DNA of 55,775 nucleotides from Catajapyx aquilonaris (GCA_000934665.2 JYFJ02000634.1:62001-117775), one strand, 5' to 3'. Positions 14,818-51,600 are shown, numbered from the stretch's first letter. The notes: generated by a model not told the origin, from the sequence alone. Numbers and translations are program-made.

Positions 14818-16947
14818 TCCCTCCTTTTCTCTCCAACATTTCTATTGAATTATAGCCTCCTCGCACAACCTGCCGCTGCTGCTACAGCCACACTCTGGCT
14901 GTACTCAACTAGCCAATCAAGAGCCTGCTGGAAAGGAAGAGAAAAATGTTGGGAAATAGAGTGGTGCTAGGGTTTGTTGGTGCGCAGCTGTTGGATGAAG
15001 CCGCTCTTGCCAGAGCCAATATTGACACTATTATTATGTCATGGGCTGTTGAAAAGAGCACGCCTGCCGGCCACTCTCCTATGGGGGACAGCTCCCACAG
15101 TCATTTCAGGCCTGCTGTGTCAACGCCTAGCAAAGGTTGCTAGGGTGGCGTGATGTACCAGCGGGGAACTCCCGAAATTTCGGCTGATCTTTACTACGCG
15201 ACGAAATGGCGGGGGGACTTCACAGAGCGCGTCCGAATGGGCATCTCGCTGTGACAAAGCCACAATAACGTTCATGATTTTTTGCGATTACAACCCTTAC
15301 AATTACCGCCCAAATCTACCATTATCGTGCTAATGGACGGACCATGCCTGGCGGAGCCACAAAGAGCGACAGTACCCGTTCGGAGGAGCTCTCTGACACT
15401 TCGTCGCGTAGGAAAGACCAGCCGAAATTTCTGCTGGATCGGTGTCTGACTGGTGGATCCTAATTGCAACAACCTAAAACACAGACGCCCGTGTGAACCT
15501 GCAATAATTAATGGGTCAATCCACAAAAATGTCAAAATTGAATTAAGCCCAGGAATATACACCTAAGGATTCAGTTAAAATCAAGGAGGCGAAATCAGCA
15601 TATTTCTGCCACAAATGACCGAAAGGAACACTGAATCAATTTCACAGGTATGACCTTCAAATGCCCCTTTATTAAACCTGTTCTCGGGTGGGTTGACTCA
15701 TTATTGCATAACACCGTCCAATTGATCCAACAGATCCCGACTGAAACATAGTAAACGGGAGGAGCGAAAGAAACCGGTCATATTCGGCGGCCTCACATAT
15801 TTTTATTTCTTTTTATTGCGTCCTTGCTAAAAGGTGACATGTGGACAACCATAACAATATTGTTTATTTCATTTATTTATATTATATATTTTTTTCTGAA
15901 TGAGCACGACTCGAAGGTACACCTGGTCTCAAAACCACGCACAGGATGGGTATGGGGAAAGGGGGATGGAGTCAGGTAGAGACAGAAAGTACACAGCAGA
16001 GACTGACTGGAAAACTTTGATGGCGTTTTGTCCTCTTTGTACAGGATAGAAAACTATTTACTACGGAAGAATAGGGTGGGTCACTAAAATTCCCTACTCC
16101 GCACAGGGGGGGTCTACTTGGATAAGTCGGGGGAAGTTTTAACCAAGCTACTAGTCCTGTTGGTCCTGAGGAAACATATTTGGGGGGGAAAAAGGAACCC
16201 ACATCGCTTCAAAATTCCAAATGGAAAAGTGGCGACGTCATCAAATAAATAATCGGCTGCATTGTCGTTCGAGTAATTTTTCCAAGTCGAATTTTGGGTC
16301 AATCTGGAGGCGCTTTAAAAGGCGGCAGAATAAACGTCCCTGTATGCGGATTCTCACTATTCTTATCGGCGCCTTTTTTTTCTCTCGTCGCGTTTAAAAC
16401 GCCTGGTGTAGCCCACACAAAGCGTTTAAAACGCGTCCAAAAAAAAGGACATCCATATGGCAAGCTACACGTTTCAAAAATTTTCATTTTGCTGAACGTT
16501 TTTCATTGGAAATGATTTTGGTAGCAAACTTCACGCCCCTGTTGACCTTGCGGACGAAACGCGACGTTTTTTGAGCCGCGTTTTAAACGTTCAAGCGCGG
16601 CTGAAGGTTGGCCCACTCGGTGACGTTTGGCAGGTTTACGGAAGAGTCACGGCCCTATGATTGTCCTCCTGTATACTCGTCGATGTGAAATTTCCAAAAT
16701 GAGCCATGCCGTTGTGTGAACGTGGCCACGAGCGCCGCTCACAAACCGAACGGCTAGCCACGCCCTAGCCTAGCCACAATGATGTTACTGGTTTTCTCGT
16801 CGTGGGTGAGCCAACCGCGTCGCGAATGACTCGGTGGGTGGTTGGGAGGGAAAGGGGTGGGAGGCAGTGTCGGTGGCGTCTACCAGCGTCGCTCCACACT
16901 GGCTGCAAGGAGCGACCCCATTCCATGCACAACAAACTTCCACGTGT

Positions 16948-16953
16948 TTTATT
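16948..16953 (-). promoter_or_regulatory. Candidate polyadenylation signal of the Nav-like gene
   Basis: AATAAA on minus strand ~60 nt after the stop at 17014. Confidence 0.55.
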
Positions 16954-17013
16954 TTTAATTTTTTTTTGTTTTAAATAGTCTACTCGGGCAGCGAGGAAAA
17001 GAAACAACTGTCT

Positions 17014-17972
17014 TCAGCGTAGGTCGTATTGACCTCCGAATGTCTTGTACTTGTGCCAGGCGACCTGAATGACCCGGGCTGACCTGTCCTGCCTCTGCCG
17101 GAGCATGGTGGAGGACACCACTCGATAGGCGGCGGCGTCGCGACGGTGGGAAAGCAGGCTGGGAGGCGGCGTTTGTCTGGGAGGCAGGTAGCGTCGGGAG
17201 TGACCGCGACGCTGGAGCAGGTCGGTCAGCAGGGCGTCGGCGGCGTCCAGTGGATGCACGGCGTCGCCTTGCACCACTGGTATGCTGAGGGCGGCCACCT
17301 TGCACCTCCCGAGCTGCAGTGGCCTTAGAGGCGCCGGCAGCATCGCCAGCGCCTCGGCCACGTGGCTGGCAGGAAGCAGCTGCCAGCGGTTACCAGTGGA
17401 CGGCGACGACGCTCCGTACGCCGCCGCTGACCACACGGCGCCTCTCCACGCCCAGTGGAAGTCGTCCGCTATCCACTCGGTCACCCCAGTCTCAGCCTCA
17501 TCCTCGGCGGCCATCACCTCCGCGATCAGGATGGCCGGAAAGAACGCAGTCAGCACCACCGACGGCAGAAGCGACGCCAGCACAAAGACCATCACCACCA
17601 CACGCGACGCTGGCGACGCCTCCAGCAAAGTGGCTAGCAGCCGGTGCCAGCCGAACCCGCCCAGGAGGACCGGGAGGAGCGTCCCGGCGGCGGCGGGGAA
17701 GGTCTTGAACATCGCCTCTTGCTCCACCACCACCTGGGGCGTCGGGAGCGTCGGAGGGACGACGCCCGGGACGCCCAGGATCACCCCTCCCACTCCGGGC
17801 TTAGGGGGAGGCATCGGTGGAATGGGGCCTCCAAACAGGGCCATCCCCACCGTCGACAGGACCACAGTGTGGAGGGACAGCAGGATGGCCACTGCCACCA
17901 GGTTGGCCGTCGCGTTGGACATGGCCGACCATGCCACGCCCAGGGGCCTGCCCCGGGGCCGAAAACACAATA
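17014..17972 (-). CDS. Nav-like exon 17: DIV S4-S5 linker, S5, pore, S6, C-terminal domain, IQ motif, stop
   Basis: GMALFG...MFKTF...GGFGWHRLL...[19 protein letters not shown]...[28 protein letters not shown]; acceptor ctaccag (phase 1). Confidence 0.85.
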
Positions 17973-20900
17973 CTGGTAGGTTGGTTCACCTCATCTGACC
18001 ATCACGGTCAAGGTTCATGCAACTGTAGATAAATTTTTACAGATCGCAACCGTGTGCGCACCATAGTTCGCGCAGCTTGCACGGGTTGGCATCAGCCCGG
18101 CTTGCAACTCCATATTAGTTAGCGTGCGCTTAACGAGTATCCGCATCCCTGGATGTGGCGCACTGTGGCGCACTGTTCCAAATCCTATTCGGGCTGACGA
18201 CTTCAGAACGGTTCAAAAGTCGTCCGCCCGAATACGATTTGGTACAGTGCCCGACAGCAGCGCCTAATCCGGGGTGGCGCAGGACTCGTTAAGAGCACGG
18301 CCGTCCCCATAAGGCTAGGATGGGACTTGCGGGGGGCTAGTTGGCCTAAACAATGATAGCTCTCTCCGTAGTGGGTGTACTGGTAATTATGCATTGCAAT
18401 TGTTTCCAACGCTACGTTTGGTGGGGACAAAATGGCTGACGGTTTGCGATGTTCCCTCTGGGAACTAAACTCACAGGTGAGTTATTTGTTGGCTTCTCGG
18501 GAGTAAGTGTGGCAACGTTGTTATCGGAACAGTATAGCTGCGCGAGTGTGGGTGCGCACTCGGTTGCGTTCGTTAAAAATTCATCTATGAAACTGAGACT
18601 TGCGCCCTGAGCTGTCGTTAAACTCCTTACCGTGTCATCCGACACCGCATGAGCAGTGTACCGGTTCGACCCCATACCCTGACCAGACGCAACAACGCAG
18701 GAGACGGCAGTTGGGCTACTGCAGTGGCGCCAATCACCCTGGGAAGAGCACCGGTCCCTTCTGCAAAGACCAAGCTGGAGGGTCAGTACAGGATGATTAC
18801 ATTCGGAGAGATTAAGATTGTCTGACCCATGAGTGCTCCGATGGCTCCGACTGCGTCTGCAAGGTTCAGGGCGGAGCAGAAGAAGGTTTTCGGTCCGGAG
18901 AGGAACCTTGCGGCCGACTCGAAGCAGAGGAGCAGGGCCATGGAGCAGCTGATGAACTTGAGTCCGTCTGCCCAAGCCGGGTGGGCAGCACGGGCCGATA
19001 GGGACAGTGGGATCAGCTGGAGGACCCCTAGGGCCACGCAGCCTGCCTCCCAACCGTGGGACTGCACGTTCTGGTGGAGCGCCCTACCCAAGCGCCACTA
19101 CACGGACGGGGAAAGGAAAACAAAAAGGTAGGCTTATTGCAGGGCCTCCACAAGACAGCGCATGCGCAGACACTTCATGAGGCCCCGATTGAGTATGATT
19201 GACGCTCAATCGGGGGCCTCAGACCACGCCTTGTCCAAAGACGCATGCGCAAACTGTTCATGAGGCCCCGATTGAGCATGATTGACGCTCGTTCGGGGCC
19301 TCAGGCCACGCCTTGTCCAAAGACGCTTGCGCAAACTGTTCATGATGCCCGATTGAGCATGACTGACGCTCAATCGGGGCCTCAGACGTCCTATCTAGGA
19401 CACGTGATCGATGTTCCGTTTGGGGAGAAAGGTAGAACGCTATCCGCTTTTTTTTCCTTCAGGAAGATGGCAGAGAGTCATGACATGAATGTTATGTGTC
19501 ATCCTCATGGAATCATTCTCTGCTGACATGGAGTACACTGAAATTACGATTCAAGCTCATTTTCTCTCTCTCTCTTCCTTACTAGCAATATTCTGATGAT
19601 TAGTATATCCCCTGCCGATAAGGAAGTCTCGCCCTTTGCCCATAAATGTTATATCTGCGGTCACCAATGTCACCCTTTATTCAGTACGCCCTTGAGGATT
19701 GAGGAGAAAGGAGTCGTCTGATTGAGTCAAGTGCAGCATCCTCCGAGATGATGGCCAACATCGGCAGTTTTGGTCTGTATTTGTTAGCCATGTTCCTGTC
19801 AGGGGTCAATCATTCCCTGGCCCTCCCAAATAACGCGGCCGAAAATATTCCCCATGGTGCTGAAACGGAACAAATCAGTCAGATAGACAGACTGGAACTG
19901 GCCATACAAACAATGATGAGAGCTGTGGAGGATGGATTTGCTCGATCAGGTAATAATAAAGGGCCAATAGATAATTATCAAGTATTGTTAAAGTCCGTTG
20001 AATATGCTGTTACTTTTCTTCCATTGCGCAGCCCGAGAGAGGCGAGAGATCAAGGAGGAAGTGGGTTCATTAAAAGAGGAAATGACAACATTAAAAGAAG
20101 GAATGAAATCATTAGAAGACAAATTGAAGTAAGTGAGCAACCAACGTGTATAACGCAATATTTCTTTTACTGCCACCAACAGCCAAGGATGGAACAATCG
20201 TGATGTTACCACAATGATCCTTTGCTAACATGTTACGTAGATCATGTTAAATGTGTTCTGGAAAAGACTGAGAACTACTGATGAGAAGAGCATGTTGACC
20301 GAAATATGGCTACTTTTTCCATCAAATTGTGTGCAAATATTATTCTAGTGTCTCATCGAGTTGTGTGGAAGGTCAGACCCCTTCGACTGGAGACCTTGAC
20401 CCGGCCACGAGTGACCTGCAATGTGCGTCTGAAGCGAGTCTCGCAGCAGAAAAGAGACTCAAGGCAGAGATTGGTCAGGCAGTGGACACTTTCACCTCAT
20501 CGGTCAGTGGACAGAAATTGGGCAACACAACTGCTTGTCCGACCGAATCTGGTAAGTGGACAGATCATTGCTGCAGGGCCATAAAAATACCGTATACTGC
20601 AGCCCTGCAGGTGCTCCGGAAGAACTTTGCAGAACCGAAATGGTTTCTTATCTACAAAATGGTTGAAGACTAACTCTGGCAATAATTTATTATAGACCCG
20701 ACACCTCATGCAGTACCTCCATCAAGAAATTGCTACGACATGAAGCAACGAGGACACAGCTCTTCTGGCGTGTATTCTGTGACCATCGCTGGAAAACAAG
20801 TCCAGGTGAGGCTCGCGTAAAAAGGTTGCATTCAGCACCCTGAATGATTGCAGATTACATTTTTACTGTCGTCTTGCCCTCAGGTGTATTGCGATATGGA

Positions 20901-23900
20901 GTCGGATGGAGGAGGGTGGACAGTAGTGCAAAGAAGAGACGACATCGAGCCTCACGTGGACTTCAACCGTGAATGGGATGGTTACAAGAGAGGGTTTGGT
21001 GATCTGAATGGGGAGTTCTGGCTGGGTAAGTTACACTCTTATCACTTGTCACCATCACAGTACACGAATGGATTGACAGGCATAAAAGGCCTGGTTTCAA
21101 AATGCTGGGAAGGGTTATTCACTGTGGATATAAAAGTAGTCATTTCTTCTCACCAGTCAGTCTAAATCTACACTATTGTGGTGCCATAATGGCTTAACTC
21201 CCTTTTGATTGTAATCCCCATAAAACATAACCCGCATTGTCCCACCCCGTACAGGTCTGGACAACATCCACGGACTGACCACTTCCACTCCGATGAGACT
21301 CCGGGTGGACCTGGAGGATTGGGAGGGGGAGAAGAGAGTCGCCTTGTACCACACTTTCATGGTCCAAGATGAAGAGGAGAAGTACAACCTCACTGTGGGA
21401 GGGTACAAGAAGGGATCGGGAGGTGATGATCCGGGGAACGCTCTATACTGGCACAATGGCAAGGTCTTCTCCACAAAAGACCAGGACAACGATGGTTATG
21501 GAGTGAACTGTGCAGAGATGTACAAGGGTGGCTGGTGGTACATAACATGCCTCTCTTCCAATCTGAACGGAGTTTATCTCAAGGGAAGGCACGACCAATC
21601 CGGTCAAGGTGTCCACTGGTACTACTGGAAGGGATCGTATTACTCTCTAAGAAGAACAGCCATGAAGATCAGACCCAGATAAAAAGACCAGTAATGACCT
21701 TCTGCACATTTCCCACTTCAATACTCACCACCTTCGCCATTTTATAACTGATCTGCATATTGGTGACATATAGAATCGGTCATAATTATGTCTGTTTTGT
21801 TTCTTTTGATTAAGTCTACCGAAGGCTACGAATGTACCAGAAAACATCCGAATATTCTTTTGTATGTTACATTCCACCTTGAAGTTTCAATGAGGAATTT
21901 ACATTGATAATCTAATTAATGAAGTTCAATTATTCATTTGTGACTGACCCCATGAAACTCGAAAATTGGGGTCTCATCTAACACTACTATAATTATGATT
22001 GTGTTCTTCTATTTTTTAAAAAAATGGATAACATAAAACATGTCACTGGAGGTCTGGAGGTATGTGTCAATAAACTCCTTTTTTCAAAGACGCATGCGTA
22101 TTCAGTTCCTGAGGCCCCGATTGAGCATAGTTGACGCTCAATTGGGGCCTCAGACCCCTCCCTTTTGGCCCCATTTTTTTCCAAAAAGCGCATGTGCAGA
22201 GTGTTCCTTAGGCCCCGACTGAGCATGATGGACTCTCGGTCGGGGCCTCAGACCACGCCTTCTCCAAAGACGCATGTGCAAACGCTTCATGAGGCCCCGA
22301 TTGAGCATGATTGGCGCTCGGTCGGGGGCCTCAGACCACGCCTTCTCCAAAGACGCATGCGCAAACGCTTCATGAGGCCCCGATTGAGCATGATTTACGC
22401 TCCGTCGGGGCCTCTCAAACCCCGCCTTCTCCAAAGACGCATGCGCAAACGGTTCATGAGGCCCCAATTGAGCATGATTGACGCTCGTTCGGGGCCTCTC
22501 AAACCCTGCCTTCTCCAAAGACGCATGCGCAAACGGTTCATGAGGCCCCGATTGAGCATGATTTACGCTCGGTCGGGGCCTCTCAAACCCCGCCTTCTCC
22601 AAAGACGCATGCGCAAACGGTTCATGAGGCCCCGATTGAGCCTGATTGACGCTCGGTCGGGGCCTCAAACCCCGCCTTTTTTCAAGTTTCTGAGGCCCCG
22701 ATTGAGCATATTTTACGCTTTTTTTCCATCCATGCAACGCCGCGGGAGTTATCTAAACCAGCTAACTGTTGGACAGTAGTTGTTTACCTTCGGAGGAGAT
22801 GAGTAGTGCTGGGGCTGCCATCTTTCCAGCTTTTTCATGGCCGAACAGTACTGCCTCATGGCCGCCTGATGGAACATGTCCAGGGTCGTGCCCCTGACAA
22901 ACAAACAAACAAAACAAGTCCATTGTAATGGCCTACAAGAATCCCGCAAACACATCCATCTATCTCTCCATGCACGCTGTTGGCGTCTTGCCGTACTTTT
23001 GCCTGAGCAGGGCTTCGAGGAGGGCCACGATGAAGAGCCTTATGTAGAGGAAGGCCGCCAGCAGCAGGAAGAGACCGAAGTATGCGCACGCGTAGAGGTT
23101 GACGTCCCTGATGGGCTGCAGGTTGGGAGCCCTGGCGTCGGTGGCGTCGGTCACCACCCCTTCCCATCCTTCCAAGGTGGCCACGTGCAGGAGGGACAGC
23201 AGGGCGCTCCAGAAGTGGTCAAAGGTCAGCTTGGCGTTCTGCCAGGTCAGCCCTTCCTTTTCGCAGGCCGCGCGGGTCGGCACGGCGTCGTGCGAAACCG
23301 CGTTGCCTCCCTGATCGACACACTTGTGGAATAGCCCTCCGAAGAGCTGGACGCCCATGCAGGCGTAGATGAAGAGGCAGCCGAAGCAGGAGAGGAAGGC
23401 GGCCAGCAGGGAGGGAAGGGCGTCGATCAAAGCGGCGCCCAGGCGTCGGCATCCACGCCACCAACGGAGAAGACGGGCCAGGCGGAGGCTGCGGGACGCC
23501 CTGGACGCCCGAAGCAAAGGGCCGTCCCCGGGGCCGCCCCTGGGCGCTGTCAGACCCGCCAGACTCAGCTGAAACGGGCACCGTTAAACTGTAGGCTGTC
23601 ATAATTTGGCAACACTGCCCAGCTCGTTACTTGGAGGTAGTACTATAAGCCACTAACACTGCTGCCGCTCCCAGGGGGAAAGTAGTAGGCTACTACATGC
23701 ACGTTGGTGATGAGTCACAGCCCGCCACTGAAGTGAGTCCCACCCTCTCTGACCGCTCTAATTGTTGAGGTGGAAAGTGAAAACTATGGGAACTGCTACG
23801 GACATGCAGACGGACTAGTAGTATGATAGCAAAGCCCTACAGGGAATATGATGTTCATGTCAGAAGATGAAATGAAGGTACCAGCTGTGTCTAAATTGCG

Positions 23901-26900
23901 TTTCTAAGCCGGTGAGCACACCTCAGTTGCGGTAATCAGAGAGGAAACGTATGTGGCTTATAACACGATTTGAACGGGTGCCAAAATCTTCTTTGTTAAG
24001 AGATCAACCCCTCAGAGGCATCTTGGCAAAGTTACTGCTTCACTGCGATGTAACCTTAACCGCTTACATAATTAATTACGAGTTACGGCCGCAGAAAATT
24101 TCCAATTTCAACTTTGGCCAAGTACAACCCCCCCTCTCATGGGGCCTATTCTAAAACACACGCGGCAAAGACTTGCACCAGAATTTATGACAATTTTTTT
24201 TTGTGTGTTGCTCCACCGCGATAAATTTGCAAGGAGGTGAAATTACTGCCCCCGAGTTTATGCAGCATTACGCCGAGTGCTCGGGAAGACTAACTTTCCT
24301 CCACATTTTTTAGTAGAATTTAACGACATCATATTACGAGGAAGGAGGGTCGCATGGCATAGCTATCACTTAAAAGTGTCCACAAAAAGCGACATTAAAA
24401 TTAAGGCTTAATAGAAAATTAGTAAGCAGAGCTGTGGACATAAACAAACATTCAAATGGGGGGCCAGCACCCCCTCAGCATAATGGAAGGGGCGGCCGGT
24501 TTAGAGGAGAGTCCTTTTCACACACACACACACGGAATTCCAATGAGCTCAAATGGAACTTGTGCACTTGCACCCAACTAATCAGCATTCATTTACATGT
24601 TAATTAACAAGCAGACAACGGTTGGCAGGTGCAAACCTCACCGCAGACATGCTCACTTAAGCTCCACTTGCACGCGTTGACTCATCACCAACGTGCATGT
24701 AGTACTAATTTCCTCCGCAGAGCGCCATCTAGTGGTGGCATGTCGTACTACGTTCAAGCCTGCCACATTTTCACAACTTCTGATGCCATGTTATTACTCG
24801 AGTGTAATTGGGCCGGATTTTCCCCAACGTACACAGGCTGATCGAAATGGCTTTTGTGAGGCAGACCAGCCATTTGAACTTTGCTGAGGTCAACGGCTGA
24901 GGTCACACCGGCCTCAATACATGCAGTGCATATCGCAAACAGTAGCTATTACACTATCAGTTCCCAGAAGAGTGATTACTATTGGCACGAGACCAACACA
25001 AAAGAGGGCACTATTATGCTATGCAGGCCCAAAAAGAAGCACGGGTTGGGGGCCACTGCCTCAATGCAACAATGGTTAACTGTCGAGGGTCACGAATACG
25101 TATCGATCTCTCCAGATCAATAGGCCATGACCCACAGCTATGCACATTAATTTTTGACCAAAAAAAAAAGTCCCAGGCACAAATGGCTTTCTTTTTTTTG
25201 CCACACACAGATCCATGCAAAAATGGGGCTGGAATATTCTTGCTCTTTAAAAAGCGGTAAGGTCGATAGTGCAGCCCCGCAGCACTCCATCAAAAAGAGA
25301 TGGGCCGCTCCCTACCTGCACACATCCATTTCACTCTCAATTATTTGGCATGCTTAACTAGAAACCTAATTAAGCGGGAGTCCCCACTGGTTACATGGGA
25401 ACAGCGCATACACTTTGCGAGGAAAGTACACCGGTCATGTTCCCACCGGAGCTCAAAAGTCTGAAACAAGTACAAAGTTCCCCGTAGTGTTCAGATAAAA
25501 AATCAGCAATGTTCAGTGCAACATTAAAAAAATTATGCAACATTCAGAAAAATTATGCAATGTTCTTAACAAATTACACAATCTTCAGAAGAAATTCTGC
25601 AACATTAAAAAAAAGATTATGCAACGTTAAAAAAATTATGCGAAGTTCATAAAAATTCTGAATTGTTCCTAACAAATTCTGCATCATTCAGACCAAAACT
25701 TGCGATGTTCATAAAAATTCTGTAAATTCTGCAAATATTCTGCAATGTTCAGAAAAAAATATATTTCAACATGAAGTAAAAATTATGTCACATACGAAAA
25801 TAAAATAAAATCTTTAACATTCAGAACATAATTCTGCAACGTTTGTTCAGAACAATTTCTGCCACATTCAGAACAAAATTTGCAATGTTCATAAATAAAT
25901 TGTGCAATGTATCACAAAAGTGAGGCAAAAACTAACTCCGTTAAGTGTCACAGTTCAACAGTCCGCGCACTTGCTACAAGCAAAAACATGAGGCCCAGTC
26001 CCAGAATAGAACCGGCTCCGAATAAACTCTTGTGACGCCTAGTGCGGAGAACAAGGTTGTATCAACATGGCATAAAGGAAGTGTTTTAGTTCGGAATGGA
26101 TCGATGCCTATCCATTCATGCAACTGGGGCCACAATCAAACAGCATTAATGCATGCTCTGCCATGTTTCAGAGATTGATCTGTTGCGCTCCCCCACGTTT
26201 TATGCACGTCACCCACTAGAAATAGACCCGCATTTGCAGAATATAGACCAGGCTCTATGAATAAGTCATGCGAGGGCATACATACATAAAGACTGCTTGA
26301 TACAACTAACCGAGAACGTGCTCAAACGTTCAGGAAAAAAGGCCGCTGATGGGATTACATTGCGCTTGGATTCACCTGGGAATTGCTTATTGCTATGTGC
26401 ACACTAACCATATTGTTTGTACACGAAGATACGCAGACAATAGCTCATATATTACTCAGATCAGGTGTAACGCAACGGAACGTACTGTTTATTTTATAAA
26501 TTAGAACATTTTTGATGTTTACATAATAATACAGAATAAGTTCGCCACACATCTGTTTACGTAAAATGAACGAGCCGTTTTTATCCTACAGAAATAGTTG
26601 TGGCGTCCTGCAGATGCTACTCATTTCAGTTGCTGTCACGACTTATCGGACATAGTCGACGAGCATTACGTGTAACAGCAGCATTATTTTAGAGCTTGCG
26701 ACTTGGAATTCGTTGCGATGCAGGTTGTGTTCAGCCTAATATTAAAAGTTGTACTCACGAAGAGAATGGCAAAGTCGAGCCCCTGCAGAGGGTCCTGTAT
26801 GAGATGCGTGGGTCCGTGGGCCAAGATGCGGAGAAGCAATTCCAGGGCTAGAAATGCGGTGAGTCCAGCGTCGATGAAGTCCATTGCGAAGGCGATTCTG

Positions 26901-29900
26901 GGTCGCTGCTCGAGTGTGTTGTCGTCCAGTCCAGCCACCACCACACCCGCTATGATGACAAGCGTCACAGCCAGTCTGAACAGACAGTTGTGCAGGATAC
27001 GGAAAGATGCGTTTCTCAGGCAGGCCCACCGCTTCCCTTGCGTCCATGGGCAAGCACCGGCTACGAACCCGCCAGTGGACGCAGTCGATGCTCGTGGCGT
27101 CGCCTCAACTTCCATCTGCTCCATTGAGTTCCCTCGGCTGGAAATAAGAGACGATGACTTATGGTTCTGCGTTGCGTTTTTCAGGACTTACCTTCTGTTG
27201 ATTCCGGCTGCGGCGTTAGCGGTGGTTCCGACTGTTGTCTTGGCCGCTTTGTGTCCGGCTCCGCACTTGTGTCTGATCCAGTCGACCAGCTCCGGCAGCC
27301 TCGATCCGCTCCAGAGGGCCAGCTCATGACCTCTCCGCCAACCTCTAGGTCGCGGGTTGACCAACAGACTAGCCAGGAACAGGTTGCTGATTATCAACTT
27401 CCCTGCTAGGAGAGCCAGCAGGAACAGCGGCAGAGCAGTGGCTAAGGGTACTGCGGGTTGAAGGGCTGCTAGGGGCTGGCTCCATCGGCCGAGGAAGGTT
27501 CGGAACATAGCCAGCAAAGAGTGGGCAAAGGATGCGCATGCCCATCTAGGAGGAGGCTGACCTTTGGCTGACCAGTACTCTGAAACGACAACAGAACAAT
27601 TACGCTGCGGAAGAACTTGTCGTGATTCAATCAATGTGAGATTCGCTACCTTTCCGAAACCAAGTTACGTCAGAGTTGGCAGAATTCTGCCAGAATTAAT
27701 TACTGGACTTAAGCTCCAGTTCTAATCAGCAGCCCCGGATTCCCGCATCAAATTACACCGGATTTGCACCGGATTCCCGATGTTTTGATTGGAAAAGCTC
27801 AACCTTTGTATTCGGGACTCAAAGAGAAAAGTAAGCTGCTTTACTCCACTAGTTTCGAGGCGAGAGCTTATTATCTTTGTATCAATCCCGGGCCTGTGAT
27901 AACAATAGACTTTTAATAGATAATGACATTCATTTCCGAGTCAGCCTCATATGCGGATATGCAGCCGATCCAAGCTGTTAAATAAATCACAGCTAGTGTT
28001 ACATCACATAAATCATGCCACTAATGATTAAATTCATGTATCACCCACTTTGGCGAGGCTTGTATACAATGCTAATAAATGTTTTGTCAGTTTAGCAGCT
28101 TATTAGCATTGCTGCGGTTTCAGCATTAGACGCTAATGTTTATGTGTATTTATGGGGGCCTCGTGAGAGCAGCTGTCGCTAATGCTATCCATCAAGCGGA
28201 GGATGATGGAGAGCCATGATGATCGTCACAAACGCCAGGGATGTTAGACTCACGTATGAGCATGGGCTTGAATATCCGTGTGCAGACTATTGCCAGGACG
28301 ACCAGGAAGCCGCTCAGATGAAGGGTAGTCAGGGCCAGCATGCGACCAGCAGCTCGGATACGACGCTCCAGAAGAGCAGCTGGACGCCACAAGGATGCAA
28401 GGGTCGCAAGTCGAACTAGACGCATCTGGAAATACAAAAATGCACCATCGAATCACTAAATTCCCAATTAGCACGTAGATATCCGTGGGACATCCCATGT
28501 CGATATCCGTCGGACATCCCATGTAGATATCAGTCGGACATCCCATGTAGATATCCGTCGGACATTCAATGGAGATATCCGTCGTACATCCCATGTAGAT
28601 ATCTGTATGACATCCCATGTAGATATCCGTCGGACATTCAATGTAGATATCCGTCGGACATCCCATGTAGATATCCGTCGGACATCCCATGGAGATATCC
28701 GTAGGACATTCCATGGAGATATCCGTAGGACATTCCATGGAGATATCCGTAGGACATCTCATGGAGATATCTGTATGACATTCCACGGAGATAACGGTAG
28801 GACATTCCATGGAGATATCGGTAGGACATCCCCTGGAGGGCAGAACGATCATGGATTAATTTATCCAAGATGCAAAACAGTTTCTTATGTAAAACCTGCA
28901 TACGTTAACTCTCGCCTACATGTTTCAGGATACGTAGAAATCAACCAAACCTTCTGGGGTCATTCACATGTTACGTCAGTGCTACTTGAACGGTGTACAC
29001 AATAAGTGATTAACTTAAAGCTAGATGTTTCGATATGATAACAGCAGTAAACCACTAATGGGAGTGGAATTAGAGTTTATGATACGCAGTACATGTTCGC
29101 AATCTAATCTGCTCCTCTTGTTTGCTTAATTACTTTGCAACAAACGCAGATACACGTAAAACGTAACAGTGTCAAATTAGCAGGCGACACAGTTACTACA
29201 GAGAGCTACAAGGTGAAATAAAATACTGAAGTTTGCTGGTTACGGCCCATAAATGTATGCGAGTATCGTTACGTACTTACTAACAAATGTTAATTATTAT
29301 TAAATGAACAATTCATATTTGACGTCCAATTTGTACACACATTTGCTTAGCATAAACGGAGTTTTGACATGGACATTATTAACCTGGTTGGGATAGTCAT
29401 AAATTTGACGGCCGCAATTTTTGAGGTTGCAAAGTGAAAAAGATTTTTATCGGTGTAGCTATAACTCCGCTTCTTTTTCTAATTTGAATCAGCTGTTTTA
29501 TGGGTACCGCTGAAAATGTCTGGGCAGCCAACTTTTTTTTAACGGCTGATTATGTAATAAAGTGGAGACAGGCTAAGCGATTCCGGCAATTTATGGCAAA
29601 GATTGGGCTGGAAGCGAAAGGTTCCAAGACGCTGGAAAAGTAACGACGCAAGTATTATGCGACAGACAGCAAATTTGCGTAATGCATGTGGTAAATGGCA
29701 GACACAAGTCGTGGACGTCAGGTCATTGCACAAATTCATCCACATTGAGCTGTCAATCAATCAGCTCAGTCAGTCGCATACGGCTTAAAGGAATAAGTGA
29801 GTCCACTGGCTTAACTTACCGTCGTAGCAGCCCGGAGCAACGGCAGAAGTGCTTCGTCTCTGACCAGATGTGTTGAGGCCGAAGTGAAGGCCATGGCCAG

Positions 29901-32900
29901 CTCGAACAGGTGACACGCATCCCGCAGGTAGATCCTGGGTCCCAGGGCTATCAGCTTCAGCACAGCCTCACCGCCATACACGCACGTGAAGATGAAGTCC
30001 GCCTTCCTCAACTTGGCCAGCAGCGATGCGTCCAGCCCATGGTGGAAGCTCACCATGGCCACAGCGTCGCATCCGAGAGTCCCCAGCAACAGTAACTCGA
30101 TCCGTGGGTCACTTATGATTTTCTGCAGACATGTCCTGTTAAGAAGAACAATCCCGTTACTAATCCGTTACATTCCCAGTATGTATAAAATTGCAAGTGT
30201 ACCTGAGACACCTGCACTTAGCAGGAGCTGCTACCTCTACAGGATCCCTGCCACTTGAGGACGAGCTCTCGGTTGTGATGCCGGGTGATGGGCACTCTTC
30301 GTCGTCATCCGCATCGTTGTCCGTCTCGTCCACGTTGGTTATCGTAGGGTCCTGCCGATGATCTGATTTGGATGGTGACGGAGCCTCGGAAGCCACAATG
30401 TACGGTGTCCCAATTGTTATCGAAGTTTCTTCTGCCGTGTGGCGCGGATGGTGGTCTTGAAGGCGCTGGAATTTAATTCCACGCATTCTTTTTTTAGAAA
30501 ATGCTATGAAGAAACAGAAGCCGAATTCCCCCAATAAAAGGTGCACTATTCATATTTCCAAGGCGTAACTTGAGCCCCTAGCAATCATAGTTTACGTACA
30601 AAACTACAAAAGAAAACGACTGCAAATATCTACAGAATTTTCTGTCAATGTGGCTCGTCGTAGCAAGAATTTTAACCAATTTTACAGCCACGTTTACATG
30701 TGAGCGATTTATCAGCTGATAAAAAGTATCAATATATTTTCGTCCCAAACAATTGGTCTCATCGCTGCAACATCGCTGATCAAATAGCTTCCGTGCAAAC
30801 GTGGTTTAAGTAACGGCTCACTCATCGCACATGAAATAAGGCGTAACGACCATACCTGTAAACGTCGCTGCAACCTCACAACGCTTTCGAGTGAGGACAC
30901 AACAACTGCGGAGACCAGATTGCAGGTCAGCAGGGCACAGGTCACCAGCGCAGGAAGGAAGAAGGTCAAGCACATCGGGCCAGCCACGCGCATAAACTGC
31001 AGTAGAAATAACGGTAAGTCACGAGGTCGAATTCCCTCTTTTCCACGTGTGACAAACCTTGTGGAATAGGTCGGAGAGCGTGTCGGAGGTCATGATCCTG
31101 AGGGCAGTGAGCAGCCCATCTGTGAACGAGTCAAAGGTGGACTGGGGCATGCCTTGCGGACTCCTGCCGTACCCCTGTCTGCAGGTGAAGTTCATCAGTG
31201 TCTGCAGGAACCCATCCTCGTCATCCGAGGCTCTGGCTACGTGACCCAGCGGACACTTCCATGCACCGGTGGTGTTTCCGCACAGTGCGTACTCGCCAGA
31301 CTCTTCCGCATACCAATTCGCTTCGGGTCATAACCAATGAGATTATGCACACTTTATTACAATAATGAGCAGGCCATACCTGGATTTGAAAAGAACGCTC
31401 TGAGGTCATCCGGTGAGAGTGGTGGTGCCCCAGGTGGCGGGTCTCTTACGCACTTCCGGGTCAGGACACCCGCGTTGAGCTCAACTCCGACCAGGCTGAC
31501 CACCCCGAGAGACAAGAGCAGCAGAGGAGCCGCGCGGAAGATCCCAAGCAGTGCCGCACCCATTCCGCCAGTAACCGCTTTATGTTCTGCGTACACGGAA
31601 AGCAGTGCTTACGTCCACATATTGAACAAGCAACGGGGGCTCACCTGGGCTACAAGACGTACTCTCCTGCACGTAACGGATGACACGGAGAGCTCGAAGT
31701 GCTTGCAGTGCACCACTTATCTCCCAGTACGGTATCATGCAGGCGCTAAAGAGCAAAAGCACAAATTATTCGTATCCATATTTGTAAAAACCCTGTCAGT
31801 TAGTGTTGACGTGGGTGCGACATATTAATTAATCTGTTTTCAGGTGGACACATTATATGCTTGCCAAAACATGCTCCATTCCTGTGGGCCGATGCAGGTG
31901 TTTACAGTTATTACAATTACGAACGTTCATATCGTTTGTATTCACACAGTGCGCACAATGGGTGGTAACACTAATTGCGAAACGTATCCCCGAGGCAGCT
32001 GCGGTTTGAATGGACTAATTCAGTGCATCAATTACACTCGTCATAACCCTCATTTTCCTGGCAGAGCGTTACAAACCGCAAGTAGTTGCATTTTAATAAA
32101 ATGTAATTCACATTATGATTACATGCCAGTAAAACAATGCTCTACGTGCAATTAATTCAGTACGGAAAAAAATATTGCGGAACAAACTCTGTAAATAATA
32201 ATTAATTAATTTCTTGAACAGGTATACATTTCCCCTATGCGTCGTGCTATGAGAGATATTACGTCAATGCACTGACCACCAAATGACAGTGAGTAATCCA
32301 TCCAGCACGTTCCAAGGGTCCCTGAGGTACGAGAAGGGCTGCATGAAGAACCCGCGGGCCACGATCTTGAGGCCCATCTCATGAGCGTAGACAAAGATGA
32401 AGGGGAACTCGTATGCGGACGTCCCTGGGAGGCTGATGAAGAGGACCTGGGCAGCCAGATGAGCCAGGATGAGAAGGAGCATGGTCCGCTCGAAGCAGGG
32501 GACCACGCAGACTCTGAGGGCCAAGCGACGGACCGCATTGTGGGGGCCAAACAGCCACAGGGACCTCTCCGCACTGAACCGATGGACACGACGCTCAGCA
32601 TTCACCACCACAAACGTCTGCAATATCACATCGGATTAGTCTCAGATTGACGCCGGTTGTCATACCGCACCTTATGCGAGTTCCTGTAGTACGGATCCAG
32701 GTCTTCCAAGGGGTCACCCAGCAGACCGAGAGGAAGGGCTTCCCTCAGCCGCGGTGCCAGGATGGTTCCTTGCCCCAACGACTCATCCGGGTGACGACGC
32801 TGCTCACCGTCACGGAACAATGGAGCCGGAGACTGCGGACGGAAAAATTCATTTTTAATTAATTCGCTCATTTATTAATATGAACTATAGCTGCCAGAAT

Positions 32901-45625: not shown

Positions 45626-48600
45626 CTACACCTTTGCTACCGCCGGGAACGGACTAGAGTAGGAGAAGCCATGTGGAGTTCCCTTCTGCTTGTGCAACCC
45701 AGGGGCAGACCCAGGGGCAATCGGAGGGAAGGCTGAAATGTTGAGCGGGGCCAAGGTCGGCTCCACTAGTCTTACTGATCCGAAGAAATCTGTGACCGGC
45801 ACTTTGGCAGGGTCGGTGCCAAACAGATCGGATCGGACACCAACGGTGGAGATGCAGAGGCGACGTGGGCATACCTCAAGCTGGAAGGTGCAGAAAAGAC
45901 TACTCACATAAATGTCATCATTTGCATACTCTCCATAAAATCAATACTGAATTTATACGTCCAACCCAGCAATGATCGTGCATTAAATGCCAGGAGGACT
46001 CGAGCCCATCTGATTGCTGACAGGATTTATAGTTCGCCTGAATCAATTATTCTGCAGATGCCAAGTTAATATCCTTTTTACGCTCCTCTGGCCATTACAC
46101 AGAGTAGGTCAAGAGTCTTTGCCAGGCAGTTACGCAGTAATTGGCGTATCCACAGCAACATTTATGGCGACCAAAGAGTTCTGCTATTATATAATATAAT
46201 ACCTAGAGGAGGTACTCCATATCCTTTTCCATTAGACAGGCTGAGGCAGCCGCCATCTTGTTGGAGGTCATATTGTTGTTCTAACAGTTGTCTAGCAACT
46301 GGGACAACAACCAATAATGACAACTGGGACGACAATTAGTTCAATAATGTCAGGCAGCCGCCATCTTGTTGAAGGTCATATTGTTGCCTGCATTGTTGCC
46401 TGCCTCACATTTCAGGCCGAGTACCTCCTCTAGGTGTATATATAATATAGCAGAACTCTTTGATGGCGACTGATTGGAGGCAGTGTGCTAAACCCTCATC
46501 GCAAAGGCATTGGTGAGGCAATAAAATTGAAAGCAGTCGTTAAGCAGTGGATACGACCGGTCGAGGTTTTTTCCCAGTTGTAATGTTCGTTTGGCAGAAA
46601 AATGACAAATCCTGATTGTATGACACTAGCGATCAACAGAAGTTAATGCAACCGGTCAGCTTATGGGAAATCTACTCACAAACTGAGCAAGTGTGTGGCT
46701 GCTCCCCGGCACAACCTTCTCCAGAAACTCCAATGCGTAGTAGGTGTATCTGTCGATGATGTACACGCCAATGGCTGGATCCACGTGGTGAGAGAGCGAG
46801 TCCTCTCCTACAAGGCTGGAGGCCACTGCCAGCACATTCGGCGAGTAGAGCCTCCGATACATGGATTCCGCTTGGCAAGTGTCCACCATCAGGAACAGCT
46901 TGTGGAAGCGGCCTGTTGAAGAGGAAACATGCATATTGCATTTTTGATGGATTTCATTAATCGGTTTGTAGTAGCGAGTATTACAGTCATATGGAAACCA
47001 GAAATCTCTCGTTCTCGTTGCAAAAGTGACGATTTGGCTATGGCAGACCTCGGTTATAACAGACTTGTTTCTGCTGTTTCTTGAGCCTGTTTTATCCAGA
47101 TGCAACTGTATTATTAACTCATTCGCTACCTGCTATATCGCCATCGCCTAGATTGTCGCTTTAAGTACTATGAACATAAGGACAAGATATTTTACATAAT
47201 AATAATACAGTAACAGCTACATTTATACACATTCATGCTGTGCATGTGACAAAAACAATTTACTCGTCTAGAAGACCCTAAATAAATTTTCAATAAGATC
47301 TCCGTAAAAACTCGAAATTCAGGTATTTCCGGCCAACTGCTGATTTAATTATGAAATACGATACAGGATGCAGAATATCTACCTTGAGAACTGTGCCAGA
47401 CGAATTTGCTGAATCGTTGTATTTCACGAGGATTAAACGAATTTGGGGATTTTTCCGAAGTAAGCCGCAGATAAGAAACCACATTTTCTCGGGAAGTACC
47501 ACGATTTCAGCGAATTCCTTTGGCGCAGCTCTCAAGGTTGACATTCCATATGTTTTAATGGAGGCTATTTCATGTTTCAATCACACTAACAGTACTTTCA
47601 TTCTGCCACGGAGGTCTTACTACCCTTTTTTTCACTGAAGGGAATGTCTTTGAGAAATACTATCACATACGAGGGGGGTTCATAAAGTTCAAGCCTTTGG
47701 GTTGAAGGATGTGAGAGAAACTGTTCACATTGCACACATGCATTAATCCTTTCTCTCTATATATTAACCCTGCAAAGCCACATATTTTTCCCAACGATGC
47801 ATGACTTGTTGGACACCATTATTGCCGAAGTCGACACTTTTTACTTGAAAAAAAAGTTTTCAACCTGGGTGAGGCTAAGGAAATGCTGGCGATGTTTCGC
47901 TCCGAAGATGGCAATTTTTTCATCCGACTCATCGTCATGGACGAATGTTGGGTGCACCACTACGACCTAGAGACCAAATTACAGAACAAGCAGTGGAAGC
48001 CTTGTGAAAGCGACGAGGGGGTGACCACAGAAGTTGAAAACAATTTTCAAGCGCAAAGTGTAGACTTCTATAGTGATGGTGTCCCACAGGTCGTGAATCA
48101 CTGGGAAAAATGTGAATGGCTTTGCAGGGTTCATGCAGAGAGAAGCACTAATACATGTGTGCAATTTGAACGGTTTCTCTCATTTCCTTCAACCCAAAGG
48201 CGCGAACTTTATGAAGTCCCTCTCGTACATGCTCTAGTGAACAAAGTATTTATCAATATTAGATCAAAAACTTTCCCTTCAGTAAAAAAAAGAGAAGTAA
48301 GACCTCCGCGGCGGAATAAAAGTACTGAAACAAGGCAGGCGCACGTAAGACCTTCACCAATTGATTTAAGCTGTACCATAGGTCTTACTCAAGCAATTAC
48401 CAATTGAAGGGGTTAGTGCCATAACGTGCTAAGCCACACTTTCGCGTTTTTCGAGCTTGCACGTGTCTGAAAGTCCCACCATCGTGCTTCACAAGTGGGC
48501 ATCACGTAGTTAGAAAAATTCCCCATAGATCACGAGAAAATCACGAATCAAGTTCCTTGTTTTGTATGATTTGCCATATTACGCCAAACTTTTGAAAGCC

Positions 48601-51600
48601 CATATCTCAGAATGACGGTTTTGTGGCTTAGCACATTATGGCACTAACCCCTTCAATTTACTACTCATGAAGTCTCCTTTCTGAAAACAAATTTGTGGAA
48701 TTTCTGTCGTACTACTAGCTACTTCTAACTTAGCAGTACCAGTGTAGTGCAATGGTATACTGCTAAGTTAGCAGTAACTACAGACCTATAGTTAATAGTA
48801 ATGGTAGTACGACGAAATTTCCACCCATTAATTTTCCATGAGCCACTCCATATTAGTGTTTTATGAAATTAGGAACTTCAATATTAAGCGCATTGAATTT
48901 CTATGCGATTATGCAAATAATTGCTATGAAACATTTATGCAGAATCGTCACCTCTTTTAGATGCTGATTTTAACTCTAACATTTAATTTTTCACATATAA
49001 ACGTTAATTGGTGAATTTTAGAGGGTCTTTTTCGATTGGACCAAGTCTGTTAGAATGGGTTTAGTTTTCCCCCCATTTTTTTTTCCCTTTCATAATAAAA
49101 TCCTACCTACTGCTCTGAGTAGTTTGCAGCAGTCATTTTACGAGACGTTCCATACCGTACCTGAGAATTGCTTGAGTAAGACCTATGGTACAGCTTAAAT
49201 CAATTGGTGAAGGTCTTACGTGCGCCTGCCTTGTTTCAGTACTTTTATTCCGCCGCGGAGGTCTTACTTCTCTTTTTTTTTTACTGAAGGGAAAGGTTTT
49301 GATCTAATTTCAGTTCTTTTTTGACAGTAGGGCCTACACATAACTTATGCTCTACATACACTATACAGTCTGCACTATGAATCCATTGGAGACGATTTTC
49401 GTCGCTTAGAAGTTCCTAAAATTATTTTCACAGAGATAGTCGTAAAAAAACGAAAGTCGAGTGCTACCAGCCAACGGTTAGTCTGATTTAATTAGTCTGG
49501 CTTAATAGTACAGTTGAATCCGGATAAAACAAACTTCAAGAGACTGCGGAAAAAGTATGTTATAACCGAGGTCTGTTATAGCCGAATCGTCACGCAACGA
49601 AAACATAAATTTCTGATTTCCATATGGATGTACTATGCACTACTAGACTACATACCGATTAATGAAATCAGTCACAAATGCAATATTGGCTCACCCGAAA
49701 ATTATGCAGGACCAAATTATCCGAAGTTTCCTTCTGCCGTCTCCTTTTTGCAAATTTTATACCTGGAAAACAATACTGTATTTTCCCACCGAGGGTTTAA
49801 GAAATGGTCTGTTATACCGGAGGTGAGGTGAAAATGAGTCTGTTACATCAGGAGTGCAAATACACAGTGCCTAATGGAAGCATGCCGGGACGGCCTTTAT
49901 AACCAAGTCTGTTATAGCCGAGGCTGTTATATGCGGATTCAACTGCAAATCTGTAATAAGTGCAATGCGTTCACACCAGCGCCAGGGTAACATTTGGCTA
50001 ATAACAATATGGCTAGTGGGTAAACAAGATTGTCGTTTCTAGGTGATGGGATTATGAACAAGTGAATTAATGACAGAAAAATAACAGGTAAAAAAATCAC
50101 AGCTCCAATCCTGTAGCAGTGGGAACTGTGATATTTTGAACATAGATCCGCACCATCCCACTGCACCTTCGACCTTTTGATGAAGGAACGGAATTCCGAA
50201 TAGTTATTGAGCAAAAAAATATAGACGTATTTTTAGGTGGGTTTAACTTTTTTGCGGCGTTTTGAAGAGGAATTGAGTTTAGCCGTAAATGGTAGGAATG
50301 CACTTCACGACGGTGGGCATCTGTGTCCAAAATTTGGAAGCTCTACCTACAGCAGAACTTGAGTTAGGGCGAATAAAAAAAGCGTAACAACAAGAAGAAG
50401 AAGAAGAAGAAGAAGAAGAAGAAGAAGATGTTGAAGAAATTCATTGTTGAAATCTATGCTACGGTCTTACTTAAGGGCTATCGCCCTTAAAATAAAAATT
50501 ACAGTGAACAGGTCGTAACTGACGTCATAAAAAATGATATGTAAAAAGTGTGCTTCTATCCTCGTCTCCCATATGGGAAGGCCATGTTTCATCACGTTTT
50601 ACATTAATTACCCAGAATGGCAACATATTTGAAGAGAAAAAATCGCACAAATTTCAATAACACACATGGCTGCGATGCTTGTGAGTCCAGCCATGCAATA
50701 GGCACACTCTTTGTTTCTCTTGGAGAATTTAGTATTGTTTTACAACGTTTCATGGTATGACTCAGTTTTGCTAGAACCAAACCGCATTGTTAAACAGAGG
50801 CTACCTCTATATTGTCGCAATATGCAATCCATATGCAACACATTATTAGATTAGCAAAAAAAAAAGATTAAGGCACCTTTCTGCCACATCTGCTCAAGGG
50901 CATCAGCCAGCTCGACGTTGGTGACCTCCTCAGAGTCCTGGAACTTCAGGAAGCCGTCCCCTCCGTGACCTGTCATGTAGACCAGGACATTGGAGCCTGA
51001 GTCAGTCAGGAGGCGCTTCGACCTGGGGGTGGACGGAGCATGGCGTCCGGTCAAAAGGCGGACAAAGTTCTCCACAGTCACCTCGTAGCCCCTGAAATGT
51101 TACAAGTGCGTCACGTTACTCGCATCTCCTGAGAATAATGCAAACTGTTGAATTTTGGATTCCAGAGTTGTAAGCATGGTCCTTAAAACAATGGTGAAAA
51201 ACCTGCTTTATGTACTAAGCGGTTTAGTATGAAATAGTCCCTACAGGGCCGGATGCAAATTATAGTTAAGTCCTCCCCAGGCACCAAATGCCCTTGGTAC
51301 GCCACTGCCGCAGAATCTGCTGGTGCAATACGCCAAAGTAACTTCACCTTTTGGCCCGGACATTGCAAAATGAGCTGCCAAAATATTATACAACATGACA
51401 TGATTTGTAGGACCAGGATAGTCTTCACTTTACTTTTTCGCATCTGGAATATTCCTGAAGCCGCACAATGGCTCACTGCCGCGTGGCTTACGGCTCCACG
51501 ACTGGGCGGCGGCCGCCGGATTCCGGCAATGAGCCAAGCGGTGTGGGTTCCGGAATCTTGCGGAATGCGCCCACCACAATTTTATTGTCGATGACGTTCA

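Follow-up and report, generated by a model that had tools for sequence, protein, structure and literature searches.

What does the sodium-channel-like locus of Catajapyx aquilonaris encode: a sodium channel, a channel of another kind, or a gene in decay? The locus lies on the minus strand of a 55,775-nucleotide stretch of the genome assembly (GCA_000934665.2 JYFJ02000634.1:62001-117775), the whole of which we call the window and from whose first letter all positions are counted. A reading of the sequence alone (hereafter the original prediction) had described it as an intact, para-like sodium-channel paralog with an unfamiliar selectivity filter. Here, our analysis revealed a gene of 16 coding exons that encodes a very divergent member of the Nav family (Nav1 and Nav2) with a D-R-E-(G/F) filter. 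On balance, we think it rather likely that this is a real and probably expressed gene whose pore has been remodelled, and that its product is probably voltage-sensing but not a classical Na+ channel.

The gene model was built by reading every minus-strand junction and then tabulating the GT and AG sites by coordinate (Table 1). Between 17014 and 32871, the 16 coding exons join into a single frame of 1594 codons followed by TGA, with no internal stop, and all 15 introns are of the GT-AG type, eight of them measuring 53-103 bases and the remaining ones 390-3690 bases. The other two frames of the same coding sequence contain 65 and 31 stops, and 1000 shuffled versions of it contained 45.1 on average and never fewer than 24, so the open frame goes beyond what chance would leave. 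The start codon occupies 32871-32869 with a stop codon immediately upstream, and a 54-base GT-AG intron 5' of exon 11 takes out an in-frame TAA at 27188-27190. At the protein level, Pfam Ion_trans matched six of the ten minus-strand open reading frame (ORF) pieces submitted (stop-to-stop ORFs from 17014-32871); matches of this type occur in ORF pieces of all four repeats, and the full-length alignment with para-type proteins spans domains I to IV (DI-DIV). The encoded protein has four tandem repeats of six transmembrane segments (S1-S6), an MF-type III-IV linker and a C-terminal IQ motif. The original prediction was therefore right that the gene is intact and that neither stop nor frameshift has to be invoked, and its borders for the exons that carry the DI, DII and DIII pore loops (exons 5, 10 and 12) are identical to ours. 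It counted 17 exons where we find 16, and it began the gene at 32832, 39 bases short of the ATG. For the junction between exons 15 and 16, donor 18662 and acceptor 17972 were our first choice and were overruled by a bridging sequencing contig in favour of 18631/17947, a junction with a better donor (ACACG/GTAAGG, the slash marking the exon border) that regains the normal length of the DIV S4 segment.

Five public sequencing runs contain the stretch, none of them listed as RNA. Four are of DNA type and come from one sample, maybe the source of the assembly, and the fifth (X5), in which 8% of the sampled words occur, belongs to a different study with a sample of its own and has no recorded library type. 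Contigs of the DNA runs X1 and X4 cross the exon-intron borders within 16900-32900 with no differing letters, for example at 16977-18083, 18555-19724 and 24687-28531. In X5, one 319-base contig follows 18630-18760 and then continues at 17946-17804, skipping 683 bases and thereby linking exons 15 and 16; once one shared G is moved across the junction, it gives the donor named above, and its end at 18760 coincides with the 5' border of exon 15. Three further X5 contigs end precisely at the exon borders 19097, 26759 and 27579. Since X5 contigs stop or jump at exon borders whereas DNA contigs pass through them, they provide spliced-transcript-like evidence. The filter codons were covered as well: DNA contigs of X1, which may itself be the assembly source, and of X4, from the same sample, match all four without a differing letter, and in the independent X5 a contig at 27253-27579 spans the DII Arg codon with no differences, while another at 17470-17698 spans the DIV Gly/Phe codons with one difference somewhere along its length (a further X5 contig in the exon 16 region lies at 16977-17404). 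The original prediction would have fallen had no spliced transcript existed or had the Arg and Glu codons of the filter been assembly errors, and on both points it came through: the evidence for a spliced transcript is good but incomplete, the gene is probably expressed, and the filter codons agree between assembly and DNA contigs and, at the Arg, with the independent run.

Membership in the Nav family is secure. For the phylogeny, 42 proteins were chosen from 185, comprising 11 with D-E-K at the first three filter positions, 20 with D-E-E or a near variant, 2 odd ones, 4 with E-E-D and 5 with E-E-E, and maximum-likelihood (ML) trees were inferred under LG+C20+F+G4 by quick search, with branch support from the Shimodaira-Hasegawa-like approximate likelihood-ratio test (SH-aLRT) only. 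In both trees, the 33-34 Nav rows split from the 9 Cav-type rows with an SH-aLRT support of 100, and the channel has the family's features, namely the filter Asp of DI (D363), the MF motif of the III-IV linker and the proximal C-terminal IQ motif. NALCN channels are marked by an EEKE or EKEE filter and by closest similarity to that group, and the filter found here begins with D. Within the Nav family, the channel stands apart by the length of its end branch, which at 4.01-4.28 changes per site is about seven times the median (0.57-0.58), and its composition departs from that of the alignment.

Searches for relatives returned generic family members at low identity. A word-based search with the DIII ORF gave 36 proteins, led by a para-like protein of abalone at 40% identity and a para of mantis shrimp at 37%, and the protein search with the last exon found no match among 8000 candidates. 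Against 1.84 billion cluster representatives, HMMER gave 3337 matches, the best 150 at 28-39% identity; the top score (P0037, 189 bits) was set aside as an artefact, because this protein, of NALCN/Cav3-like kind, carries domain III twice and so scores too high. By BLAST over the whole length, a short damselfly "para-like" protein came first (P0141, 25.7% over 1371 amino acids), the highest identity in the tree alignments was 30% over 885-887 columns, the ESM Atlas gave generic sodium-channel clusters only (0.89-0.91), and a metagenome scan in which 601 patterns matched had none confirmed. The protein is thus absent from the collections searched, and its lineage may be unsampled in them. Among solved structures, those of NavPaS and Nav1.x matched best, and the DIII exon matched that of the cockroach paralog PaFPC1, NavPaS (PDB 5x0m), at 160.9 bits, compared with 130.2 for a T-type Cav, 116.8 for Nax (7tj8) and 23.8 for NALCN (7wji).

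Comparison of the four pore loops showed changes in each of them. All four pore-loop strings quoted by the original prediction are present in the exons to which it had assigned them, including that of DIII, which ends in VATLEGWEG, in exon 12 and that of DIV in the last exon. Aligned with para-type proteins and solved Nav structures, the D, E, K and A of the DEKA ring correspond to D363, R700, E1057 and either G1381 or F1382, and the outer ring consists of S, Q, E/G and H, with none of the four classical acidic positions kept. In DI, where the alignment is consistent across mollusc and crustacean para proteins, solved Nav structures and 165 other four-domain channels, T-S-D-T-L-S stands against T-Q-D-Y-W-E: the Asp is retained, the Trp is lost and the outer Glu has become Ser. 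Aligned to NavPaS residues 359-424, exon 5 likewise sets D on D, and L and S opposite the NavPaS W and E. In DII, L-G-R-W-S-Q replaces C-G-E-W-I-E, the inner Glu having become Arg (CGA) and the outer Glu Gln, and the alignment with human Nav1.1 gives the same pairing (CGEWIE with LGRWSQ). In DIII, T-L-E-G-W-E-G replaces T-F-K-G-W-x-D, with Lys changed to Glu (GAA); exon 12 as a whole is recognised by Pfam Ion_trans (E 2.1e-27) and by NavPaS (E 1e-45), whose ATFKGW falls on ATLEGW. In DIV, G-G-F-G-W-H replaces T-S-A-G-W-D and the outer Asp is His; the Ala site is F1382 in the para alignment; in the 165-channel alignment it is G1381, and F1382 is then an extra residue. HMMER aligned the DIV pore loop to no solved chain, which leaves GW as the only anchor for its site assignment. 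The pore helix before this loop has no likeness to the family pattern and closes with a Pro, and the loop between S5 and the pore is enlarged by a Pro-rich insert of about 40 residues.

Within the available text of a 2018 review of Nav pores (PMC6259924), the Na+-selective rings are DEKA, DEKG, DKEA, DKEG, EKEE and EEKE, in which a Lys is always present, and the Ca2+-selective or non-selective rings are DEEA/S/G/T, EEEE and EEDD. As aligned here, the D-R-E-(G/F) ring fits neither group, although it resembles DKEA in its net inner-ring charge of -1 and in having a basic residue in DII followed by an acidic one in DIII. Neither Arg nor Lys occupies the DII filter site in any of the 165 other aligned four-domain channels, an alignment made in MAFFT fast mode in which a few reference filter calls may be misaligned, and a literature search that took in the available text of the same review and had subscription journals outside its range brought up no filter that carries an Arg in DII or a Phe in DIV. 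To that extent, the original prediction that the filter is an undescribed one stands.

The changes extend beyond the pore loops. The DIII voltage sensor is fully charged, with six or more regularly spaced Arg in S4; DI S4 is left with three Arg, and DII S4 has three Arg and a three-residue insert, both of its Lys being lost (the positions are T and S); DIV S4 keeps its first two Arg and is irregular thereafter. A three-residue insert occurs at the same place of DII S4 in the Branchiostoma protein P0072, annotated "sodium channel protein 1 brain-like". Of the four S6 Asn, those of DI and DII are still present and those of DIII and DIV are gone, and the III-IV linker reads LDMFHQ, compared with EMFMT in Nav1 and EMFLT in bilaterian Nav2. 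The C-terminal domain aligns with NavPaS through the IQ motif (E 5e-09). Conservation is uneven, DIII being 36% identical to para and the linkers having nothing in common with it; for exon 7, which carries the I-II linker, piecewise BLAST found no similarity to other channels. Good conservation remains in S4 and the pore helix of DIII, in the S6 motif of DII and in the IQ region. With the outer ring, the DI Trp, the DIV helix, two S6 Asn and the S4 charges all altered, these findings point to a general remodelling or degeneration of the pore and not to the swap of a single lysine.

We propose that the gene would have arisen by duplication in a lineage poorly sampled in public protein sets, which would make it an extra paralog, and that it would then have evolved fast under selection that kept the fold and the frame, not the classical permeation pathway. 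Its product would be a voltage-sensing membrane protein in which voltage may still be sensed via DIII and calmodulin may still be bound at the IQ motif, and whose cation pore would be of low conductance and poorly selective, or would be lacking altogether. Judged by the residues that line the pore, such a weak path, or none, appears more likely, and a fast, Na+-selective pore of the classical kind appears very improbable.

The alternative that survives best concerns descent. If the gene derives not from para/Nav1 but from Nav2 (DSC1/60E type, DEEA), then its DIII Glu was inherited from the ancestor, and what is new comes down to the DII Arg and the altered DIV site. Both ML trees place the channel among DEE-type rows. 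In the first, its sister is a DEE-type protein of a soft tick (P0140) with the second-longest Nav branch (support 81); we regard this grouping as a probable long-branch artefact, the tree tool having flagged it as long branches meeting and BLAST having given no special similarity between the two (22.8% identity, 291 bits). With P0140 removed, the channel joins the Ciona Nav2 protein P0065 (support 91) within the chordate Nav2 group, in a set of five that includes lamprey, shark and coelacanth Nav2 (97). The Pro after the DII outer-ring position and the Val after the DIII motif are also as in DEE-type rows. However, a constraint that places the channel with the 11 DEK-type rows is merely 0.53 log-likelihood units worse (approximately unbiased (AU) test, p 0.477), so the trees cannot choose between para/Nav1 and Nav2, and the placement of so long a branch is unreliable in any case. 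The N-terminal 100 residues are Nav1-like, with a best score of 77 bits and a median of 63 against 9 Nav1-type proteins compared with 50 and 25 against 21 DEE-type proteins, and with 46% identity over 80 residues to a Nav1-type protein; outside these residues, piecewise BLAST gave equal affinity to both sets. A three-residue N-terminal insert, which is present in 15 of 15 metazoan DEE-type rows, is absent from the channel as it is from 10 of 10 DEK rows (a diagnostic that we drew ourselves from the alignment), and the DI pore helix has the R-x-M-T of Nav1, as opposed to Q-x-I-T.

The filter itself has neither the Lys by which Nav1 is recognised in DIII or DII (DEKA, DEKG or DKEA; here these sites hold Glu and Arg) nor the D-E-E-(A/S/G/T) ring of Nav2, from which it departs by the DII Arg and by a DIV Gly with an inserted Phe, or a Phe. 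Nav1/para is further marked by extra introns in the I-II and II-III linkers, according to the legend of Figure 10 in PMC6259924; in the present gene, the I-II linker (residues 419-505) lies on one exon flanked by introns and the II-III linker has an intron at 797/798, at positions that may or may not be those of Nav1. Altogether, descent from para/Nav1 seems somewhat more likely, and descent from Nav2 keeps a real though lesser share of probability. The phylogeny that the original prediction had proposed as a check thus separates Nav from Cav-type channels and does not choose between Nav1 and Nav2 for the channel, and its "para-like paralog" finds backing in the N-terminus and is unproven in the trees.

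Another alternative is that of a dying gene, recently freed from selection and still transcribed, whose odd pore residues are decay, and it is here that the observations weighing against our reading of a maintained channel have to be considered. The extreme branch and the skewed composition would suit decay: GARP residues (G, A, R and P) make up 33% of the protein compared with 20-21% in seven relatives, and FYMINK residues 16% compared with 29-33%, a drift toward GC-rich codons that is seen at all three codon positions and fits relaxed constraint, which could act together with a GC-biased process, as well as adaptation. Hallmark residues are missing all along the pore and from every S4 segment but that of DIII. 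A minor haplotype in the DNA run X4 (depth 11 of 44) differs in exon 10 at 27541 and 27568 and in the adjoining intron at 27594 and 27613, and both exonic variants are non-synonymous (Ala to Ser and Ala to Pro), two being too few to weigh. The depth of X5 over the channel exons is low (about 1.4-7.8), one junction only is bridged among the rows shown, by a library of unrecorded type, and X5 covers nothing of 31318-32900 and 28648-30249 (exons 1-4 and 8), blanks to which we give no weight in either direction but which mean that the 5' half of the model is based on splice-site logic and homology. Three alternative in-frame donors are possible there, at 32280 in exon 2 (3 bases upstream), at 31663 in exon 3 (which would cut six residues from the S4-S5 stretch) and at 30212 in exon 7. 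Finally, no ortholog was found in three protein searches and one metagenome scan.

Even with all this, decay is improbable as the explanation of the locus. Neutral decay does not look like a gene with no stop, no frameshift and no lost splice site over 4785 bases and 15 introns, when the other frames hold 31-65 stops. The exons have a GC content of 0.614, and 0.713 at third codon positions (GC3), against 0.442 in the introns, a value that is equal in the eight short introns; with an exon GC of 0.61 directly beside introns of 53-67 bases at 0.44, the exons have not relaxed to the background. The neighbouring Peptidase_C13 gene, a housekeeping gene, has a GC3 of 0.71-0.88, and the channel's value near it indicates that the channel gene follows the coding usage of its genome. 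Decay would also have had to spare the well-conserved stretches named above, from DIII S4 to the IQ region.

Replacement of Lys by Arg in the DEKA ring degrades selectivity, and this counts against an Arg that acts as the Lys of a DKEA filter. The suggestion of the original prediction that the channel possibly converged on the DKEA type of cnidarians is weakened, and a working Na+-selective filter of that kind is now very unlikely, for although the basic DII residue and the DIII Glu give the inner ring the same net charge of -1 as DEKA and DKEA, a DII Lys (DKEA, DKEG, EKEE) goes with Na+ selectivity in the available text of PMC6259924, and DIII S4 and the MF linker are retained, the residue is Arg and not Lys, no Na+-selective filter with Arg is among the patterns of that same text, the outer acidic residues are replaced (S, Q, E/G and H), and the change is not limited to two residues but takes in the DI Trp, the DIV pore helix with a bulky Phe at or beside its filter site, the S6 Asn and S4. 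What stands of the original interpretation is an intact, lineage-restricted gene with an altered pore.

Table 1. Coding exons of the channel gene and other features of the window (residue numbers refer to the 1594-residue product; slashes within sequences mark exon borders)
Feature	Coordinates	Strand	Residues	Content and remarks
Exon 1	32671..32871	-	1-67	N-terminal cytoplasmic region; donor AAG/GTGCGG, then 53-base GT-AG intron
Exon 2	32277..32617	-	68-180	DI S1-S3; Pfam Ion_trans E 3e-08 on enclosing ORF
Exon 3	31645..31745	-	181-214	DI S3 end to S4; splice sites read
Exon 4	31380..31586	-	215-283	DI S4-S5 linker, S5, start of extracellular loop
Exon 5	31058..31320	-	284-371	DI extracellular loop and pore loop; D363 at 31082-31084, outer-ring S366
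Exon 6	30856..30996	-	372-418	DI S6; preceded by 61-base GT-AG intron
Exon 7	30203..30465	-	419-505	I-II linker, acidic and Ser-rich; sole phase-0 acceptor
Exon 8	29820..30135	-	506-611	DII S1-S3 and start of S4; Pfam Ion_trans E 1.2e-07 on enclosing ORF
Exon 9	28254..28425	-	612-668	DII S4-S5
Exon 10	27192..27579	-	669-797	DII pore loop, S6, II-III linker; R700 at 27485-27487, outer-ring Q703
Exon 11	26759..27137	-	798-924	II-III linker and DIII S1-S3
Exon 12	22997..23568	-	925-1114	DIII S4-S6; E1057 at 23170-23172, then G, W, E1060, G1061
Exon 13	22788..22893	-	1115-1150	III-IV linker, LDMFHQ where Nav1 has EMFMT
Exon 14	18827..19097	-	1151-1240	DIV S1-S3; X5 contig 18939-19097 stops at 5' border
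Exon 15	18631..18760	-	1241-1283	DIV S3-S4; donor ACACG/GTAAGG set by X5 contig
Exon 16	17014..17947	-	1284-1594	DIV S4 end, S5, Pro-rich loop insert, pore loop, S6, C-terminal domain with IQ motif; G1381/F1382 at 17653-17658, H1385; acceptor CAG/G at 17947; TGA at 17014-17016
Fibrinogen-C-domain (FREP-like) gene	19703-21682	+		Nested in intron 13
Peptidase_C13 gene	45644-52666	-		Glycosylphosphatidylinositol-anchor transamidase (PIGK) by homology
Tandem repeat, 82-84-base unit	19159-19387			2.8 copies; intron 13
Tandem repeat, 82-84-base unit	22180-22678			6.0 copies; intron 13
Tandem repeat, 24-base unit	28477-28838			15.1 copies, 88% matches; intron 8
Interspersed repeat	18081-18580			Intron 15
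Interspersed repeat	23603-23700			Intron 11, just upstream of exon 12
Interspersed repeat	24671-24712			Intron 11

The window has a GC content of 0.40-0.57 and contains intron-bearing, animal-type genes. The fibrinogen-domain gene was identified by Pfam Fibrinogen_C (E 5.7e-20 and 2e-46); over its exons, the summed depth of DNA contigs is 326-1123 compared with about 30 for single-copy sequence, which suggests many similar copies in the genome, and X5 depth reaches 161. The 82-84-base tandem units stand at both ends of intron 13 and flank this gene. The Peptidase_C13 gene was recovered in five tblastn pieces with 52-92% identity to a termite protein, and proteins of arthropods, annelids and snails match it about equally well (495-529 bits); a mariner-like transposase guessed at 47805-48404 was rejected, Pfam giving no match. 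The 24-base repeat of intron 8 has long, non-exonic open frames on both strands. Over the interspersed repeats, the summed depth of DNA contigs is 380-2900 compared with about 30, and many contigs branch off at 18536-18539, 18579, 23603, 24671 and 24712.

Nav-family pores are a textbook case in which a few ring residues set ion selectivity, and the patterns in the available text of the review are few (PMC6259924). If the D-R-E-(G/F) channel is maintained in nature, it would be a natural experiment on how the scaffold comes to a new selectivity rule, to a leak or sensor role, or to a voltage sensor with no pore, and it would add a case of extreme acceleration following duplication to a family of which invertebrates usually have a single, slowly evolving copy; should it be a decaying copy, the case is an ordinary one. 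That a D/R/E/F ring with no outer acidic ring should define an undescribed, lineage-conserved functional class, whether through an Arg-based, DKEA-like selectivity or as a non-conducting voltage sensor, seems to us unlikely. The case is that of one gene in one unsampled lineage.

Among known systems, the channel shares with Nav1/para (DEKA) the four-domain layout, the N-terminal region, the Cys pattern of the DI extracellular loop, the MF-type linker and the C-terminal domain with its IQ motif, and differs by a filter with no Lys, a non-acidic outer ring, an unrecognisable DIV loop, fewer S4 charges and its sevenfold branch. For exons 5, 12 and 16, no solved structure matches better than that of the cockroach paralog NavPaS, from which, to our knowledge, no currents have been recorded in heterologous expression. 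Vertebrate Nax (SCN7A) is alike by analogy, being a relative of Nav that acts as a sensor or leak channel and whose filter, which we take to be DENA, is non-standard. With Nav2 (DSC1/60E/BSC1; DEEA and DEES/G/T), the channel shares the DI Asp, the DIII Glu and the Pro after the DII outer-ring site, and the ML trees place it among them, a placement that the AU test does not favour over Nav1; it differs by an Arg instead of Glu in DII, by its DIV Gly/Phe where Nav2 has A, S, G or T followed by GW-N-D, and by having no N-terminal insert. The cnidarian Nav2.5-type channels (DKEA; available portions of PMC3809514 and PMC6259924) likewise combine a basic DII residue with a DIII Glu, whereas the channel has Arg in place of Lys and Phe/Gly in place of Ala and has lost the outer ring; this is a likeness and no claim of kinship, the aligned set containing no DKEA row. 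Other filters are off-pattern too: the heterodimeric channel of aphids has DENS (available portion of PMC4332693), and within our reference set the Branchiostoma P0072 has D-D-Q-A and a Trichoplax sp. H2 protein (P0107, "sodium channel protein 60E") D-E-D-A. Together with Nax, these indicate that non-standard filters have turned up repeatedly among the Nav paralogs of animals, but none of the four has an Arg in DII or a Phe in DIV, and the end branches of the off-pattern relatives in our trees measure 0.71-1.26 against the 4.0-4.3 of the channel. Off-pattern Nav filters as such are thus already known, and what is new here is the DII Arg, the Phe at or beside the DIV site, the missing outer ring and an end branch some seven times as long as the median one.

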